A stretch of DNA of 32,592 bases, from positions 1 through 32,592 of IMG/VR virus record IMGVR_UViG_3300020044_006431. The stretch is one strand, 5' to 3'. This document shows, one piece after another, positions 2,873 to 32,088 of the stretch (position 1 is the first letter of the stretch; every line of letters begins with the position of its first letter). Source of the DNA: a virus (taxonomy: Duplodnaviria; Caudoviricetes). A program made the translations under genes and the position numbers. Below the pieces are notes generated by a model, which was given only the letters and a program-made list of their open reading frames with translations, did not search any database and was not told the origin of the DNA.

Positions 2873-3733
2873 ATGGAAAACAAAACCCCCGTAAAAATCG
2901 AAAATACCATTAAAACGTTTTTCGAAAAACCAGCCGTTAAAAACAAATTTCAGGAAGTAATCGGCAAACGTTCAACACAGTTTATTAGTTCAATTCTACA
3001 AATTACCGCTAACAATTCAATGTTGAAAAATGCCGATCCGATTTCGGTATACAACGCCGCGTTAATGGCTGCAACATTAGATTTACCCATTAACCAAAAT
3101 TTGGGCTTTGCGTGGATTGTACCCTACGGAAAAGCCGCGCAATTTCAGTTAGGCGTTAAAGGTTTAGTTCAACTTGCCCAGCGTTCGGGTCAATACCTAA
3201 ATATTAATGTAATCGAAGTTTATGAAAATCAATTCGAGAGCTTCAACACGTTAACGGAAAACCTAAATGCAAAATTTGATTTACCGGGCGAAGGAAAAAT
3301 AATAGGTTACGCGGCTTATTTCAAACTAATAAACGGATTCGAAAAAACTTGCTTTTGGACCACGGAAAAAGTAATTCAGCACGGCAAACGATATTCGAAA
3401 TCATTTAACAATGGACCGTGGAAAACCGATTTCGACGCAATGGCAAAAAAGACCGTTTTAAAATCAACTTTGAGCAAATGGGGTATTTTATCAATCGAAA
3501 TGCAAACCGCCGTTAAAATAGATCAATCGGTTATTAACGATGAAACAGGCGAAAATGTAACCTATGTCGATCACGAAGAAATAGTAATTAACCCCGAAAT
3601 CGAGCGTTTAAGACAATTAATTGAAAGCTCCGAAACGATCGACGAATTAGAGGTTTATGCAAGTTCAATTCCCGAAGAACTTAATCAAATGTTTCAGGAA
3701 AAATATATGAGTTTAACCCCGTCAGAAAAATGA
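2873..3733 (+). CDS. recT: RecT-family single-strand annealing protein
   Basis: AALMAATLDLPINQNLGFAWIVPY, QFQLG.KGLVQLAQRSGQY and W..DFDAMAKKTVLK are RecT motifs. Confidence 0.92.
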   Translation: MENKTPVKIENTIKTFFEKPAVKNKFQEVIGKRSTQFISSILQITANNSMLKNADPISVYNAALMAATLDLPINQNLGFAWIVPYGKAAQFQLGVKGLVQLAQRSGQYLNINVIEVYENQFESFNTLTENLNAKFDLPGEGKIIGYAAYFKLINGFEKTCFWTTEKVIQHGKRYSKSFNNGPWKTDFDAMAKKTVLKSTLSKWGILSIEMQTAVKIDQSVINDETGENVTYVDHEEIVINPEIERLRQLIESSETIDELEVYASSIPEELNQMFQEKYMSLTPSEK

Positions 3734-5312: not shown

Positions 5313-6033
5313 GTATTTTAATGGCTTTTGGAATTGGGCTTTAAATAATCCTGAGAAAAATAACCCAACGGCAACGGCAATCTATTTTTATATTTTAAAC
5401 GTTGCAAATGAATTGCGCTGGAAGGAATCTTTCGGGCTTAGTTCAACTCAGATAATTAGCGCGGTCGGGGTTTCTAATTATAAAACTTATAAAAAGAATC
5501 TCGATATTTTAGTTGAAAACGGTTTAATTAAAATTGTAGTTCAAAGCAAAAATCAATATCAATGTAATATTATTGCTTTGGTAAAATTTACCGAAGCAAG
5601 TCCAAAGCAAAACCAAAGCAAAGCCGAAGCAAAGAAAAAGCAAAGCGAAAGCAACGCCCATAATCATAAGACTATTAAAAACGATAAAGACTTTATAAAC
5701 GATAAAGACAATAAAGAGGGAAATAAAATTTTAATCGATGTTTCAAAAAATCAAAACAACGTTTCGGGGGCTTGGTTTAAAAAAGCAACCGCCGCCGAAT
5801 TTATAGAACGATTGCAAATATTCAGGAACGAAAACCCGAACAACGGTTACCCCGAAATAATGTTTAGCGATTTCATTAATTACTATACAACGCCAAACGA
5901 TAAAAACGGAATCCGATTAAACAATTATACTAACTTCGGATTTCAAAACAACCTTTACGAATGGAAGCACGATATTAAACACGCTGGAAAATACGAAATC
6001 AAAACCCCTAAAAAAAAATTGCACTATGAATAA
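5305..6033 (+). CDS. Phage replication initiator (lambda O/DnaD-like role)
   Basis: N-terminal wHTH-like region (AIYFYIL..AN.L.W...F...YKK.L..LVENGLIK), internal iterons, directly upstream of DnaB. Confidence 0.75.
   Translation: MFEYFNGFWNWALNNPEKNNPTATAIYFYILNVANELRWKESFGLSSTQIISAVGVSNYKTYKKNLDILVENGLIKIVVQSKNQYQCNIIALVKFTEASPKQNQSKAEAKKKQSESNAHNHKTIKNDKDFINDKDNKEGNKILIDVSKNQNNVSGAWFKKATAAEFIERLQIFRNENPNNGYPEIMFSDFINYYTTPNDKNGIRLNNYTNFGFQNNLYEWKHDIKHAGKYEIKTPKKKLHYE
5573..5718. repeat. Iteron array / putative replication origin
   Basis: Six tandem 11-bp units nnnAAGCAAnn at 5591-5656, one inverted copy at 5573-5585, then ATAAAGAC-type AT-rich repeats. Confidence 0.75.
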
Positions 6034-8316: not shown

Positions 8317-8645
8317 AAGGTTATACCAAACAAAAATTAACTTTTACAAAAATTGAACTTATCCAGCAGCTCACAAATTGGAACTGTAACCTAACCGATT
8401 TATTCGACGAAGATAAAATCGATATTGGAATTAAAGCACTCGCATTTAATAAACTCGGAATCGATTTTTTATTTAACTCAGATCAGGAATTTAAAAAAAT
8501 ATCGGACCGAATACACATTGAAATAAATTACTTTTTTTGCAACGGAAACCCTGAAAGCGAACTAATTAATTTCGATTATTGCGAAGTCGAAATAGAAGTT
8601 TTCCCCGAAGAAAATTATTTAATTCGCGCTGCAATCGAAAATTAA
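8313..8645 (+). CDS. Hypothetical protein
   Basis: Last ORF of the replication cluster. Confidence 0.65.
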   Translation: MKGYTKQKLTFTKIELIQQLTNWNCNLTDLFDEDKIDIGIKALAFNKLGIDFLFNSDQEFKKISDRIHIEINYFFCNGNPESELINFDYCEVEIEVFPEENYLIRAAIEN

Positions 8646-8647
8646 AT

Positions 8648-8655
8648 TATCTTTG
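8648..8655 (+). promoter_or_regulatory. Bacteroidota -7 promoter box for candidate sRNA
   Basis: TATCTTTG, identical to the boxes at 1614 and 31572. Confidence 0.6.
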
Positions 8656-8659
8656 TTTC

Positions 8660-8734
8660 GAGGTTTTGAATGAGCGTGTAAGGGGTTACACTTAGTTTTG
8701 AAAAGCCGGGCGTTAATTCGTTCGGCTTTTTTTA
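8660..8734 (+). ncRNA. Candidate trans-acting small RNA (GGGG-loop hairpin plus terminator)
   Basis: Lies between the -7 box and an intrinsic terminator with no plausible ORF; GTGTAA-GGGG-TTACAC hairpin at 8676-8691; complementary to AACCCC(T) motifs before early genes. Confidence 0.6.
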
Positions 8735-8736
8735 TT
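8701..8736 (+). terminator. Intrinsic terminator
   Basis: AAAAGCCGGGCG-TTAATT-CGTTCGGCTTTT followed by TTTATT. Confidence 0.85.
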
Positions 8737-8744
8737 TAACTTTG
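8737..8744 (+). promoter_or_regulatory. -7 promoter box for packaging/tail operon (possibly leaderless)
   Basis: TAACTTTG directly after the terminator and 5 nt before ATG 8750. Confidence 0.5.
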
Positions 8745-8749
8745 TTCAA

Positions 8750-9940
8750 ATGATTGAAACAAAACTTTATAAAATTTCGGATATTAAACCGAACCCAAAC
8801 AACCCCCGAATAATAAAAGACGATAAATTTTTAAAGCTGGTTAATTCAATTAAGGAATTTCCCGAAATGCTTAAAATTCGCCCGATTGTTATTAATGAGG
8901 ATAATATAGTTCTTGGGGGGAATATGCGATTAAAGGCGTGCAAAGAAGCTAAACTAAAAGAAATTCCCGTTATAATGGCAAGCGATCTAACCGAAGCCCA
9001 GCAACGCGAATTTATTATTAAAGATAATATTGGATTTGGCGAATGGGACTTTCAGGACCTTGCGCAAAATTGGAACGCCGAAGAACTCGAAACGTGGGGT
9101 TTGGATTTACCCGAAATAGAAATAAATAATTTAGAAGCAGTTGAGGACGATTTCGAAGTTCCTGAAAATGGAATTGAAACCGATATTGTTTTGGGCGACT
9201 TATTCGAAATAGGCGAACACCGTTTAATGTGCGGGGATTCTACGGATTCGGATTCGGTAGCTAAATTGATGAATGGGGAAAAAGCCGATATAACATTTTC
9301 TTCGCCGCCTTATAATGTTGGAAAAACTCCAAACGGAAATGATAAAAAATATTTGAATGATACTGATGATAAAACTAATAATGAATATGTTATTTTATTA
9401 GATGATTATTCTAAAAATGCTTTATTATTTTCTGATTATTTATTTTCTAATATTCAAAGTTTATCGGGAAATAAAATAGCATTAATAGAGCATTTATATA
9501 ATTTAAAAAATGTTTATGCCGATGTTATGATATGGGATAAACAAAATGCAGAACCAGCAATGGCAAGAAAAGTTTTAAATTCAAGATTTGAATATGTTTA
9601 TATTTTTTCAAATGAAGCAAAAAGAAGCATAGGTAAAAAAGATTTTAGAGGCACAATAGATAATATATTTTCTTTAAATTCAAGGCAAGGAAAAGATTTT
9701 GCAAAGATTCATAAGGCAACATTTCCTATTCAATTGCCTTCTTTTTTTATTGAAAATTTTACAGAGAATTCAATTTTAGATTTATTTTTAGGAACAGGAA
9801 CCACAATGGTAGCCGCCCATCAATTAAAAAGAAAATGTTTTGGTATGGAATTGGACCCGAAATATTGTCAAGTTATAATCGATCGAATGAAAAAATTAGA
9901 ACCTGAAATTGTTATAAAGCGTAACGGAATTGTTATTTAA
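8750..9940 (+). CDS. ParB-like domain fused to N4-C/N6-A DNA methyltransferase (beta class)
   Basis: IKPNPNNPR...LGGNMRLKAC (ParB/Srx); HRLMCGDS, SPPY, HKATFP, LDLFLGTGTT, GMELDPKYC. Confidence 0.9.
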   Translation: MIETKLYKISDIKPNPNNPRIIKDDKFLKLVNSIKEFPEMLKIRPIVINEDNIVLGGNMRLKACKEAKLKEIPVIMASDLTEAQQREFIIKDNIGFGEWDFQDLAQNWNAEELETWGLDLPEIEINNLEAVEDDFEVPENGIETDIVLGDLFEIGEHRLMCGDSTDSDSVAKLMNGEKADITFSSPPYNVGKTPNGNDKKYLNDTDDKTNNEYVILLDDYSKNALLFSDYLFSNIQSLSGNKIALIEHLYNLKNVYADVMIWDKQNAEPAMARKVLNSRFEYVYIFSNEAKRSIGKKDFRGTIDNIFSLNSRQGKDFAKIHKATFPIQLPSFFIENFTENSILDLFLGTGTTMVAAHQLKRKCFGMELDPKYCQVIIDRMKKLEPEIVIKRNGIVI

Positions 9941-17290: not shown

Positions 17291-20212
17291 ATGGCTGAAA
17301 CGCAAACTTTAATATTAGATATTCAATTCAAAAGTGAGGACGTAATTAAAAAAACAACTGACTTAAAAAATCAAGTTGCTGGATTAAAAGAGCAAAACAA
17401 AGAACTTTTAAAAAGCGAAGGCGAAGTTACCGAAGCATACGTAAAAACCGCCGCCGAAATTAAGTTTCTTTCAAAAGAGATTTCCAATAATGAGCGGCAA
17501 TTATTAATGCAAGCGCAAGCCGTAAACGCTAATAAAGATTCATACGAACAACTTTTGCGAAATGTTAATTTAGCGGAAATAGAATTAAAGAATTTAACAG
17601 GAACCGTAAAAACAAATGCAGATGGAACCGTTCAATTTACCGATGCTTATTTTAAGGCAAAGCAGCAAGTAGATAATGCGCGCGAAGGGCTTTTGCTTTT
17701 TAACGCTGGAATTAAATCGGGAAAAGAAAACGTCGGGAACTACGCGAATACTTTGGAAGGGATGCGCGCTAAATTAAGCGATCTTCAAAAAGTAATTCAA
17801 ACTACTCAAGTCGATTCAATCGAGTTTAAGCAAGCAAAAGACGAAGCCGATAATTTAGGGCTTGCAATCGGGCAGCTCGAAGGGAAATTAGACGAATTCG
17901 GAAACAAGGAACCGAAGAACCCAGCGAAAAGAACTTTCGAAGATACGATTGCAACGGCGGGCGCGGCGGCTTCGGCTTCGCAATTGGTAACGCTTGCATT
18001 TAGTGAAAATAAAAACGTTACCGAAGCACTCGCACAATCAACAAAAGCCCTTGCAATCGGGCAACAAATCGCAAATATTGTAAAAGAAAAGGGCGCGATA
18101 GCTGACACTTTCGCAATGATTTCGCAAAAAAGTTTAATCGCGGGAAATGCGGTTTTAGCTTTTGGGACTACGGTATTAACAGGAATAACAACGGCGTTCG
18201 GGGTTGCTTCGGGTACGGCGTGGGCAATTGCAACGGGTGGCGTTGCTTTATTAATTGCTGGAATTGCGGCGTTAATTGTTTATTTCGATGATATTAAAAA
18301 CGCGGTAACGGATTTCTTAGGATTAACAAGCAAACAAACACGCGCCGCGAGTGCCGCCGCTGAACAATATAAAAAACAAGCGGATGCAATCAATTTTGCG
18401 CGGGATGCTTACGATAGGTATTCGACAATCGTCGGGGCTTCATACGATCGGGAAATTAAATTAGCTTCGGCAGCGGGAAAAAATACCGTTGAGCTTGAAA
18501 GAGCAAAAGCAAAAAGTTTTGAAGATTCAACAAACAAACTTATTTTACAACTTGAAGCGCAATTGAAATTAGCACAGGCGGCAAAAGCCAGCGCAAAGGA
18601 TCAAATCGCTTTAAGCCGTGAAATTCAAGATTTGCAAGGGAAAGTTTTAGATTCAAAAACCGAAACCGCCGCAAAAGATATTGCAATTGAAACAGAAAAA
18701 AACGACAAAATAAAAGAGGATAATAAAAAAGCGGCTGCGGATGCTGTCGCAGCTCGTAAAAAATACAATCAAGATTTAAAGGCGCTGGATGCTGAATTTA
18801 ATTTAAGCGAACGCGAAAAGTTAGCAAAGGGATTCGACGATAAAGCCGCGGTGTTGGTTGGAAATGGAGAAAAAGAAATAAAGTTGCGTGAACAAATCGA
18901 AGCAAAAAAACAAGCCGCTTTATTAAAATTTGATGCGGACGCTAAAAAAGCCGCGGACGATTTAGAAAAAACGCGCGTTGATAATGAATTAAACGTGCAA
19001 GCGCAATTATTAGCGATTGAAAAAGATTCTTTGACAAATCGTTTAGCGGTTTTCGAAAATTCATTTGCAGCACGTGAAGCGGCGTTAAAAAAAGCGGGTG
19101 CAACCGAAGCGCAAATAGAAAAAATTAAATTAGCTGAAATAAAAAAAATAAATGATGCTTACACGTCCGAAGAATTTAATAATCAAATTGCTTTAATAAA
19201 CGCGCAATTAAAGTTAGATCAAGATGCAGTCGATTTAAGTACCCAAACCGAAGCTGAAAAACAAACCGCGAAACTTGATATTCAAATTCAAGCATTAGAA
19301 ACGCAATTAGCATTAACTAAACAGTTTTTGGGCAAGGATGGAATAATAACCGCCGAAGAATTGCAAGGAATTAAAACAATTGAAAACGCTTTAGCAGCCG
19401 CCCGAAAAGGATTAGGCGAAGTTAAACCCGATCAACCAACATTCGGGCAAAGTTTAGGACTTTCAGACGAGGGAATAGAAAACGCGCAAAAGGCAATTGA
19501 TACAATTAGTAATGGTTTATCGCAAGTTCAGGAAATTATTTCTTTAAGGTTTGAAGCGCAAAAAAACGCAATCGACGCGAACGAGCAAGCCGAAATCGAA
19601 GCCGTTAACAATTCAACATTAAATGAGGAAGAAAAAGCAAAACGAATAAAAGATATCGAAAGAAAGGCGGCACAGGATCGCTACGAAATCGCAAAAAAAG
19701 AATTTGAAGTACAGAAAAACTTTCAAATTACACAGGCGTTAATCGGGGCGGCTCAGGGTATTATTCAAGCGTTCCAACTTGGACCCATTGCGGGGGCGAT
19801 TGCTGCAATAGGCGTAGGAATTGCAACGGCGGCACAAATCGCAGCGATTCGTTCACAGAAACCCCCAGCGGCTCCGGGCTTCGCAAAGGGTGTTATTAAT
19901 CTCAACGGACCCGGAACCGAAACCAGCGATTCGATCCCCGCGCGGCTTTCAAAAGGTGAATCGGTTATAACGGCAAGCGGAACAAGTTTCGCGCAAAGTA
20001 ATTATCCCGGCTTATTAGAATTCCTAAATACTCGAAATCGCTTTGCAACGGGCGTTATTAATTTCGGCGGGGCAAATGTACCAACGGCGGGGAATGATTC
20101 AACTGAACGCCTTATTTCGGCTATTTCGGGTATTTCTCCTATCGTCAAGGTTACGGATATAAATAAAAAACAATCGGATTATTCAGAGGTTCGCGTAAAT
20201 GGAACAATTTAA
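17291..20212 (+). CDS. Tail tape measure protein
   Basis: 973 aa, Ala/Lys/Glu-rich helical with hydrophobic segments; FAKG...GPGTETSDSIPARLSKGESVI motif. Confidence 0.88.
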   Translation: MAETQTLILDIQFKSEDVIKKTTDLKNQVAGLKEQNKELLKSEGEVTEAYVKTAAEIKFLSKEISNNERQLLMQAQAVNANKDSYEQLLRNVNLAEIELKNLTGTVKTNADGTVQFTDAYFKAKQQVDNAREGLLLFNAGIKSGKENVGNYANTLEGMRAKLSDLQKVIQTTQVDSIEFKQAKDEADNLGLAIGQLEGKLDEFGNKEPKNPAKRTFEDTIATAGAAASASQLVTLAFSENKNVTEALAQSTKALAIGQQIANIVKEKGAIADTFAMISQKSLIAGNAVLAFGTTVLTGITTAFGVASGTAWAIATGGVALLIAGIAALIVYFDDIKNAVTDFLGLTSKQTRAASAAAEQYKKQADAINFARDAYDRYSTIVGASYDREIKLASAAGKNTVELERAKAKSFEDSTNKLILQLEAQLKLAQAAKASAKDQIALSREIQDLQGKVLDSKTETAAKDIAIETEKNDKIKEDNKKAAADAVAARKKYNQDLKALDAEFNLSEREKLAKGFDDKAAVLVGNGEKEIKLREQIEAKKQAALLKFDADAKKAADDLEKTRVDNELNVQAQLLAIEKDSLTNRLAVFENSFAAREAALKKAGATEAQIEKIKLAEIKKINDAYTSEEFNNQIALINAQLKLDQDAVDLSTQTEAEKQTAKLDIQIQALETQLALTKQFLGKDGIITAEELQGIKTIENALAAARKGLGEVKPDQPTFGQSLGLSDEGIENAQKAIDTISNGLSQVQEIISLRFEAQKNAIDANEQAEIEAVNNSTLNEEEKAKRIKDIERKAAQDRYEIAKKEFEVQKNFQITQALIGAAQGIIQAFQLGPIAGAIAAIGVGIATAAQIAAIRSQKPPAAPGFAKGVINLNGPGTETSDSIPARLSKGESVITASGTSFAQSNYPGLLEFLNTRNRFATGVINFGGANVPTAGNDSTERLISAISGISPIVKVTDINKKQSDYSEVRVNGTI

Positions 20213-20450: not shown

Positions 20451-20503
20451 TTTACAATCTTAATGATAAACTTTTGATTTACTTAATAAAATACTTTTGA
20501 CAA
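20448..20503 (+). promoter_or_regulatory. Head-operon promoter region with imperfect tandem repeat
   Basis: TACTTTTG at 20492-20499, 4 nt before ATG; TGATTTAC at 20448 and 20475; ACTTTTGA twice. Confidence 0.5.
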
Positions 20504-21571
20504 ATGAACCACCACATTTATTTATACGGGGTAATCGGGCAAGACGTTTTTTTAAAAAATGTTATTGAACAATTAGGCGCGGTCCATTCAGGGGAAACGG
20601 TAACGGCTCACATTCATTCTCCGGGCGGTTTTGTTTCGGAGGGTTACGCGATTTACGATTACTTAGTATCTCAATCCAAACAATTAGGTTTTAATCTCGA
20701 AACAATTGCAGAAGGTGAATGTAAATCAATTGCAACGGTTATTTTTTTAGCGGCACCCGTTCGAAAGATTACCAGCAATTCCGAATTTATGATTCATAAC
20801 CCGTGGGGCGCGAATGAAGGGGATGCGGCTTCGATGCAAAAATACGCGTCGATGCTAAAAGAAGAAGAAAAAATGTTAGCAAAGTTTTATTCTAAAAAAA
20901 TCGGAATTGATATTGCTGATATTTTAAGCTGGATGAAAACAGAAACTTATTATTCCGCGAGCGAAGCGGTTAAAATGGGTTTTGCGACTGAGGTTATAGA
21001 CACTATGAAAGCGGTTGCACTTTATAACGAAAACAATCTAAACAATAATTTAACAAAAACAAAAATGAACAAGCCAAACTTTAATTTACAAAACTTTAAA
21101 GCGATTGCAAAACGCGCTTTGAAAGCCCTATCAGGCGAAGCGGTTAAAAATCTCGATGCTTTTTTAGAGGACGGGACCGCTATTTTTATTCAAACCGAAG
21201 CCGCGGAACCAGCAATTGGGGACGAAGTTTATTTGGTTGAAACGGGAGAATATGCACCCGACGGAACGCATACTTTAGATTCAGGTTTAGTAATCGTAAC
21301 GGTTAGCGGTTTAATTACCGAAATTAACCCTGTTGCAGCGCAATCAATCGAAGAAATGCAAGCGCGTATTTCGGAACTTGAAACGGCTTTAGCCGAAGTT
21401 CAACCGATTATCGCAAACCTTTCAAATATTACGGGCGAATTTACACCAAGTGCAAAAGCACAAAGAACAGTTCAAACGGGACCGGGACGCGCCGAGGGTG
21501 CAAGCAAAACAAAAGCGGTTTCAAGTTTTGACAAAAGCGCAATCAAACCAAACCAACGCGCAAAAAACTAA
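20504..21571 (+). CDS. ClpP-type prohead protease with C-terminal scaffold-like region
   Basis: IHSPGG.V.EG.AIY, CKSIAT (catalytic Ser), FMIHNPW (His), ETYYSA.EAV..GFA. Confidence 0.9.
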   Translation: MNHHIYLYGVIGQDVFLKNVIEQLGAVHSGETVTAHIHSPGGFVSEGYAIYDYLVSQSKQLGFNLETIAEGECKSIATVIFLAAPVRKITSNSEFMIHNPWGANEGDAASMQKYASMLKEEEKMLAKFYSKKIGIDIADILSWMKTETYYSASEAVKMGFATEVIDTMKAVALYNENNLNNNLTKTKMNKPNFNLQNFKAIAKRALKALSGEAVKNLDAFLEDGTAIFIQTEAAEPAIGDEVYLVETGEYAPDGTHTLDSGLVIVTVSGLITEINPVAAQSIEEMQARISELETALAEVQPIIANLSNITGEFTPSAKAQRTVQTGPGRAEGASKTKAVSSFDKSAIKPNQRAKN

Positions 21572-30055: not shown

Positions 30056-30625
30056 ATGAGCGCGCGGTATATTCTAACTAATTCAATCGATTTATTTTAC
30101 GTAGTAACCGATGAAAGCGGGGTTATTATTGGAAGTAACGATTTATTCAAAGAATATTCCAGCCATATAAAACCGAAAAATGTTTCCGAAATGATTTCGG
30201 ACGATTCCGATTTTAGCGAGTTTTCCGATTCAGTTAAAAGGGCAAAGGAACGCGCGCCGTTGCCGATTCGATTTTACGCAAAGACAAAACAAAAAAACGG
30301 TTCTATGCGCTGGAACCTTTGGAATATTTATTTTATTCTAAATTCATTGCACTTTGTCGGTTTACCTATTACCGATGTAACAAGTATAACGAGCCACGAA
30401 TACGAAAAACAAAAGCAACTTTTAGAGGATTTTCGTTTTATGCTTTCGCACGAATTAAGGCAGCCGTTAACCAGCATTGCGGGACTTGTTAAAATGTTAA
30501 TTGAAAAAGATTTTACCGAAACAAACGAAGAAAATATTAAATTGCTCGAAATGGTAAATTTATCAGTTGAGCAGCTCGATAAATCAATTCACAATTTAGT
30601 TAAAAAAGCTACGCGGCAAATTTAA
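30056..30625 (+). CDS. PAS-like plus HisKA (DHp) protein lacking the kinase ATPase domain
   Basis: YVVTDESG.II..N..F (PAS-like); F.FMLSHELRQPLTSI.GLV.ML H-box; stop follows the second DHp helix. Confidence 0.82.
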   Translation: MSARYILTNSIDLFYVVTDESGVIIGSNDLFKEYSSHIKPKNVSEMISDDSDFSEFSDSVKRAKERAPLPIRFYAKTKQKNGSMRWNLWNIYFILNSLHFVGLPITDVTSITSHEYEKQKQLLEDFRFMLSHELRQPLTSIAGLVKMLIEKDFTETNEENIKLLEMVNLSVEQLDKSIHNLVKKATRQI

Positions 30626-31546: not shown

Positions 31547-31579
31547 TTTGGATTATTAGATAGTATTTATCTATCTTTG
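31547..31579 (+). promoter_or_regulatory. Bacteroidota sigma-A promoter with overlapping operator palindrome
   Basis: TTTG(31547-50)-N21-TATCTTTG(31572-79) full consensus; AGATAG-N7-CTATCT at 31558-31576. Confidence 0.8.
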
Positions 31580-31605
31580 TTGAAACAAAACGAAACCCCT
31601 ACACA

Positions 31606-31822: not shown

Positions 31823-31840
31823 ACAAAAACCCCTTATAAA

Positions 31841-32072: not shown

Positions 32073-32088
32073 TTTAAACCCCGATCAA

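Follow-up and report, generated by a model that had tools for sequence, protein, structure and literature searches.

Known phage RNAs mostly act on one gene or on host genes. The CI RNA of phage P4 is said to be a short RNA that pairs in trans and thereby keeps the phage's lytic genes under control, and it reportedly causes premature transcription termination in one leader. The C4 RNA of phages P1 and P7, for its part, reportedly controls a single antirepressor operon. As described for P1 and P7, C4 is a ~77-nt antisense RNA that acts in trans on its own messages, with loop pairing near ribosome-binding sites; the loop sets its specificity, and the RNA is made of three stem-loops and excised by RNase P (PMC5320573). 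In mycobacteria, the 6C sRNA uses homopolymer loops, made of C, to seed on many G-rich host messages through G-C pairing and without a chaperone (PMC6486639). In Bacteroidota, GibS of Bacteroides thetaiotaomicron is a chromosomal trans sRNA with a long unstructured seed, which represses two metabolic targets over the initiation region with neither Hfq nor ProQ; its targets have no shared tag, and ribosome blocking by pairing at the initiation region has been proposed for it (PMC7366714). OOP, sar, aQ, 24B_1, VpdS and PreS are phage-encoded regulators of development as well, described as single-gene antisense RNAs or as Hfq-dependent RNAs that act largely on host genes (PMC12197685; bioRxiv 2024.10.31.621285). 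The main text of a 2025 review contains none of the terms "Bacteroid", "Flavobacter" or "early genes" (PMC12197685), and in the open-access literature searched, no system comparable to the one described below was found.

The RNA studied here is most likely an antisense RNA acting in trans to control those early genes that bear a tag, and it belongs to neither the C4 nor the 6C family. It would act on 7–13 separate early leaders per genome, in contrast to the one operon attributed to C4, and it differs from P4 CI RNA in its many start-codon-proximal tags. Like C4, it would be a short phage RNA reading messages of its own phage by a loop. Yet the unit consists of one hairpin and a terminator and lacks the three stems, with a′ and b′ loops, of the C4 fold. 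Like 6C, it would combine homopolymer loop seeding, many targets and G-C pairing without a chaperone, of which 6C is the mirror image: here a G loop would read a C tag that the phage maintains for genes of its own, in a host that lacks Shine-Dalgarno (SD) sequences. With GibS it would share the Bacteroidota setting and repression in trans over the initiation region, and with OOP and the others a role in phage development. The initial annotation had not recognised it as a described family and, as a matter of fact, the Rfam 15 families gave no match in the window at the gathering threshold; the best local match of the unit, L10_leader at 28.3 versus 44 bits, came from its terminator. Rfam gave no match either in the loci holding the units of G003, G004, G029 and G050, four records that are dealt with below.

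The window, that is, the whole stretch of DNA analysed, is a complete phage and an entire virus record of 32,592 bases, whose start sequence is repeated at its end. Its + strand carries nearly all the genes. The early block runs from ~31.6 kb, through the origin, to position 8645 and includes HTH, ssb, RecT (gene 2873, assigned by a PHROG match), exonuclease and DnaB genes; the late block starts at 8750 with a ParB-methylase gene and includes terminase, portal, protease and endolysin genes. The host is likely a member of the Bacteroidota, as judged from the TAnnTTTG boxes, the A-rich leaders devoid of SD sequences, the RecT matches (topped by Leeuwenhoekiella and Riemerella phages) and a capsid relative that bears the name of a Sphingobacteriaceae bin. 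No close cultured relative of the phage was found. Two further traits of the layout were observed. Within the lysis region lies a gene (30056–30625) that encodes a HisKA histidine-kinase domain and is 89–100% conserved in the relatives listed. The ParB-methylase slot (8750–9940), next to the RNA, is variable; it is missing or replaced in several relatives, and where it differs, the RNA unit and the following promoter are still kept.

The RNA unit occupies the boundary between the two blocks and comprises the following features.

8648 to 8655, + strand: predicted promoter of the RNA, a Bacteroidota -7 box TATCTTTG without operator
8660 to 8735, + strand: predicted small RNA of ~75 nt, its ends placed by box spacing and terminator
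8662 to 8669, + strand: conserved 5′ element GGTTTTGA, predicted to pair as a second site with TT(C/T)AAAA(C/T) near target starts
8676 to 8691, + strand: seed hairpin GUGUAA-GGGG-UUACAC, with the seed GGGGUU at 8682–8687
8700 to 8736, + strand: intrinsic terminator, a stem (8700–8731) followed by a T-tract
8737 to 8744, + strand: predicted late promoter TAACTTTG of the ParB-methylase gene, whose start at 8750 would be leaderless

The promoter box, hairpin and terminator of the initial annotation are all present, at 8648–8655, 8676–8691 and 8700–8731. The start of the RNA was placed at 8660–8661 from the box spacing of the Flavobacterium promoter consensus, for which a box-to-start distance of 4–5 nt is given (PMC6847099). 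Relatives were collected by DNA-pattern and protein scans, ten records were examined whole, and 15 distinct related sequences of the unit were aligned. Throughout these 15, the promoter box varied at its two middle bases only (TC, TA, CA, AC or GC); the box of G004 has a G where PMC6847099, in its consensus, reports almost none. The fold of 8660–8736 reached −25.1 kcal/mol, a value that none of 200 shuffles equalled and to which the terminator contributes most. In the alignment, the hairpin stem showed two-sided changes at 3 of its 6 pairs, with 98.9% of cells paired, and the terminator stem at 3 of 11. None of 500 shuffles reached this count of six compensated pairs, a control inflated by the kinship of the sequences, and slid controls gave at most 2. 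The GTTTTG of the 5′ element was unchanged in 15/15 sequences, and the hairpin loop was altered in a single one, G004. At the level of sequence, this is a real, conserved element that behaves like an RNA gene; in all 15 distinct sequences it lies in non-coding DNA with a promoter and a terminator to itself. The late promoter TAACTTTG is kept immediately 3′ of the terminator in relatives. A second late box (20492–20504) also lies ~5 nt before an ATG and predicts a leaderless message for the head protease, an arrangement present in 9 of the 10 clade genomes.

The early region is headed by two promoters, and its candidate regulator and short C-run motifs, hereafter tags, are distributed as follows, from early promoter 1 through the origin.

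31559 to 31579, + strand: early promoter 1, a TATCTTTG box overlapped by the conserved inverted repeat GATAG-N7-CTATC
31594 to 31600, + strand: tag AACCCCT before ORF 31606, the first after early promoter 1 (4/4 orthologous leaders)
31828 to 31834, + strand: tag AACCCCT before ORF 31841 (2/2 orthologous leaders)
32077 to 32082, + strand: tag AACCCC before ORF 32089 (6/10 orthologous leaders by script count)
215 to 415, + strand: HTH_3 (XRE-type) protein, above the Pfam HTH_3 cut-off and a PHROG transcriptional regulator
1601 to 1621, + strand: early promoter 2, with an equivalent, conserved operator-like repeat over its -7 box
1646 to 1652, + strand: tag AACCCCT before the LPD29 gene (start 1667), the first after early promoter 2 (3/3 leaders)
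2047 to 2053, + strand: tag AACCCCT before ORF 2059 (10/10 orthologous leaders, as AATCCC in G004)
2476 to 2481, + strand: tag AACCCC before ORF 2490 (8/10 exact, the other two C-to-T)
2860 to 2866, + strand: tag AACCCCT before recT (2873) (9/10, plus AATCCC at the true start in G004)
3715 to 3720, + strand: weak site before the exonuclease gene, within recT codons (5/10 leaders)
6003 to 6009, + strand: weak site before dnaB, within codons of the upstream gene (5/9 leaders)

Each of the 10 clade genomes contained exactly two copies of GATAG-N7-CTATC, with invariant arms and a variable spacer. Conserved operators at both early promoters suggest an additional protein repressor, and the HTH_3 protein is the candidate binder that we infer for them. 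With an HTH gene and operators present, the RNA would not be the sole control.

On the + strand of the window, 9 of the 18 copies of AACCCC were located within 30 nt upstream of a start codon (genes 1667, 2059, 2490, 2873, 3730, 6026, 31606, 31841 and 32089); thus 9/23 early genes were preceded by the tag, and 0/25 late genes. Among these, ORF 32089 heads a chain of overlapping genes that contains the HTH and ssb genes. The tag of ORF 2490 was recorded as AATCCC in G004 and as AACTCC in G001 and G002. All leader matches previously reported at 1640–1652, 31828–31838, 31594–31604 and 2047–2056 were present, as were the AACCCC cores before 2490, 2873 and 32089, all of them early genes. Around dnaB, two sites had been proposed: the one at 6003 exists, within the coding sequence of the preceding gene, and is kept in 5/9 leaders, whereas the one at 6032 turned out to lie inside dnaB itself. 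The exonuclease-gene site at 3715 had been overlooked. Because both lie inside upstream codons and are kept in 5/10 and 5/9 leaders, the exonuclease and dnaB sites are weak candidates, and dnaB would be a weak target. Separately, hairpins of the type GGGCGG-loop-CCGCCC are repeated at ~2011–2032 and right before 31841 and 32089, just 5′ of the tag. Lying between variable early genes, they may serve in message protection or processing, or be repeats for cassette shuffling.

Across the 10 clade genomes, which are not independent, the tag was carried by 60/66 uncoupled genes from early promoter 1 to recT and by 0/54 coupled (overlapping) genes between promoter 1 and recT, as against 12/100 genes after recT, a zone to which the G004 recT was wrongly assigned through a coordinate offset, and 0/238 late genes. 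In the window, the sole untagged gene of the promoter 1–recT zone was the HTH gene, which overlaps a gene across the origin. Tags were spread over 26 gene families, many of them unrelated and many confined to one genome. In 24/25 families the distance to the start codon was 6–8 or 13–17 nt, always in sense orientation. Tagged initiation regions were almost unstructured (median −1.3 versus −3.0 kcal/mol), and 23/25 tagged families had A-12, which is partly built into the motif. The complement of the 5′ element was found near the start in 7/26 tagged versus 2/65 untagged gene families (Fisher p 0.002). When 1132 non-coding 24-nt segments from both strands were ranked by pairing, the leaders' own opposite strands paired best and the hairpin came next. 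Binding energies of tagged versus untagged leaders are circular and were not used as support.

Next to these distributions stands the exception in the alignment. G004, whose terminase is 95% identical to that of the window, has the seed GGGAUU, and AAUCCC, the exact partner change, precedes four of its early genes, namely the orthologues of 2059, 2490 and recT plus one more. Neither AACCCC nor GGGGTT occurs on the G004 coding strand (26 kb), and no C-run was found before three uncoupled early genes of this genome. Mean duplex energies were −14.6 kcal/mol for the window RNA on window leaders and −6.7 for the G004 RNA on window leaders, versus −11.6 for the window RNA on G004 leaders, through G-U pairs, and −12.3 for the G004 RNA on its own leaders. 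Such asymmetric cross-pairing is the pattern expected of a G-U wobble intermediate. This is one natural event of compensatory change between seed and targets, affecting four leaders, in the most AT-rich genome of the set (30% GC), whose position in the tree is not resolved.

Matching between G-run and leaders was also observed outside the clade. In a scan of 46 records for repeated leader words, with no word set beforehand, C-run words stood out strongly in the clade and in G029 and in no other record. The latter is a complete 35.7-kb phage whose capsid is 41% identical to that of the window, and 11 of its 54 genes have C-run leaders, mainly CCCCTGA; TGA followed the C-run in 7/10 G029 leaders versus 1/39 elsewhere. 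Its sole sense-strand intergenic G-run, ATCAGGGGGGG, lies where the lysis genes end, with a TATCTTTA box before it and a terminator after it; this unit was spotted by eye. The early promoters of G029 carry an analogous TGTAAA/TTTACA repeat. A scan with the tag sequence returned at least 118 loci and was the source of G046–G050, of which G046 and G047 are fragments and G048–G050 are therefore ascertained through the tag itself. G050 is a 168-kb genome with no tblastn match to the 46 window proteins. Leaders of the AAACCC(C)T type precede 13 of its 188 genes, all inside 11–33 kb, and its longest GGGG-loop hairpin has 9 bp, with TTAATTAA arms and TTAA on the 5′ side, a terminator following. Boxes are off-consensus in both genomes (TATCTTTA in G029, TATATTAA in G050), and in both the flank of the G-run matches the tag of its own lineage. 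Since the only relative of G050 is identical to it, G050 contributes no covariation. The clade covariance model did not match the G029 or G050 unit, and these were thus treated as separate RNAs with the same logic. The units occupy different genome positions in the three lineages. With a uniform detector, the unit was recovered from 8/10 clade genomes and from G050, those of G001, G004 and G029 being missed; among records chosen without regard to the tag, the detector gave 1/34.

Other records were less telling. G003 (L047:10007–10093, − strand), an unrelated phage of 51% GC, has a similar GGGG-loop hairpin and terminator (covariance-model E 4e-4), with no consensus promoter box and no tagged leader; its possible pairing with two late-gene leaders, third and fifth in the duplex ranking, was not convincing. 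In G049 (complete) and G048 (89%), three leaders apiece carry the tag, and neither genome showed a unit; a detector match in G048 was the opposite strand of the C-run upstream of an early gene and was not counted. Tag and unit are both missing from G017 (RecT 70%). Blastn of the RNA unit against 50,697 phage records gave no match, and among 57 viral pattern matches the hairpin occurred only in the clade and G003. A metagenome scan added at least 5 short loci, 4 of which had the seed hairpin, all with GGGG. Two observations are set apart from these counts. The lower strand of G020 near 19547 (oriented record) showed a TATGTTTG box, a G-rich hairpin and a terminator in a loose screen; this candidate was absent from the uniform screen, comes from a partial record without most early genes and may be a further member. 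L333, an unrelated viral locus, has very strong repeated leader words, on 7–9 of 33 genes (p about 1e-11).

The reading that we consider probable is that a trans-acting phage RNA pairs with the C tags of early leaders and blocks their translation, as a delayed shut-off. Its seed is conserved and complementary to targets encoded elsewhere in the genome, as in trans-acting sRNAs. The GGGG loop would seed on the CCCC of early leaders and the weak A-U stem of the hairpin would then open, the UU of the seed pairing with adenines at about −11/−12, after which the 5′ arm and the GUUUUGA element would lengthen the duplex to or past the start codon. Indeed, predicted duplexes begin at the C-run and run toward or over the start codon. 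In Flavobacterium, weakly structured starts with A-3, A-6, A-12 and A-13 are described as favoured in initiation, and a reporter lost 90% of its expression when UCCC stood at −14 to −11 (PMC6847099). Given these data, a stimulatory role of the C-run is unlikely, and a duplex at this place would most probably keep ribosomes out. In a host type without SD sequences, the phage thus appears to add an address of its own to independently initiated genes. Every such gene from early promoter 1 to recT would bear this address, and genes that overlap tagged ones would be silenced via translational coupling. With an operator-free promoter placed where the early region ends, the RNA would accumulate during infection and turn off host-takeover and recombination genes after a delay, adding to a protein repressor at the two operators. 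The trans-acting sRNA put forward in the initial annotation is supported by the G004 covariation, which that annotation had suggested looking for in related phages and to which G029 and G050 add lineage-specific matching, as well as by stem compensation, box variation and tag restriction; repression itself we infer.

A possibility, which we hold to be unlikely, is that the same RNA and the same pairing serve mainly RNA immunity or the maintenance of a carrier state, silencing leaky early transcripts of a resident phage together with those of superinfecting kin, G004 being an immunity variant. The RNA promoter does lack the operator present at both early promoters, cross-pairing between the window (G000) and G004 is uneven, and C4 of P1/P7 provides a precedent (PMC5320573). 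The genome itself argues otherwise: almost all genes lie on one strand, none of the 46 window proteins is an integrase in a PHROGs scan, none of the nine clade relatives (G001, G002, G004–G010) was classed as a provirus, and none of 85 pattern matches in prokaryote genomes had both box and hairpin. The earlier statement that the phage has no recognisable CI/integrase pair calls for correction as to a regulator, given the HTH_3 protein at 215–415 and the operator-like repeats at the early promoters. With no sign of integration, we would favour a lytic delayed shut-off over immunity.

Improbable as well is a situation with no pairing in trans, wherein duplication of early-gene cassettes would have spread the C-run, as an intrinsic leader or a DNA site, and the hairpin would be an inverted copy of it or a cis element acting on the adjacent terminator. 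An inverted double-stranded site would give equal covariation, the repeated GGGCGG/CCGCCC hairpins show that leaders were duplicated, and in G049 three genes at 36052–36984, two of them divergent, share an identical 16-nt C-run leader with no unit seen; moreover, G003 has the hairpin without tags. This would leave unaccounted for the fixed spacing and sense orientation of tags in unrelated contexts (24/25 families), and the fact that the sole inverted copy sits exposed in a compensated loop with promoter and terminator on either side. Units at differing positions in three lineages, each with a flank matching its own tags, and a detection rate of 1/34 in records not selected for the tag point the same way.

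That the RNA pairs with the tags and activates or stabilises early messages, for instance as an adaptor replacing SD pairing, seems to us very doubtful. The commonest spacing, 6–8 nt (13/25 families), does resemble that of an SD sequence, and tagged genes come first after strong promoters. However, the predicted duplexes cover the start codon, the tagged regions are nearly unstructured, so that there is nothing to unmask, and the GAGG near the 5′ end of the RNA is missing from 4/10 genomes; in addition, the Bacteroidia anti-SD is described as sequestered (PMC13000457). Finally, that host messages or other phages are the main targets, with the tags on own genes secondary, is scarcely credible. 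G003 does keep a similar hairpin without tags of its own, but the own tags of G004 changed in step with its seed.

Returning to delayed shut-off by pairing with early tags, it is quite possible, if short of probable, that Bacteroidota phages have repeatedly built such an RNA-addressed regulon, made of C-run tags on early genes and one G-run RNA, with at least three unrelated RNAs (window clade, G029 and G050), and that seed swaps create new specificity groups, which may decide superinfection by kin. If so, the C-run address would also be put on newly acquired early genes. The tag marks early, independently translated small genes without assigned function, and the G004 and window RNAs make a natural compensatory pair. 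Hosts without SD pairing and without Hfq would be the setting for such control, and in Bacteroidota the RNA with its tag could serve as a compact translational switch that can be retargeted. If true, one RNA governing an entire class of genes in its own phage would be a new means of timing infection or of immunity.
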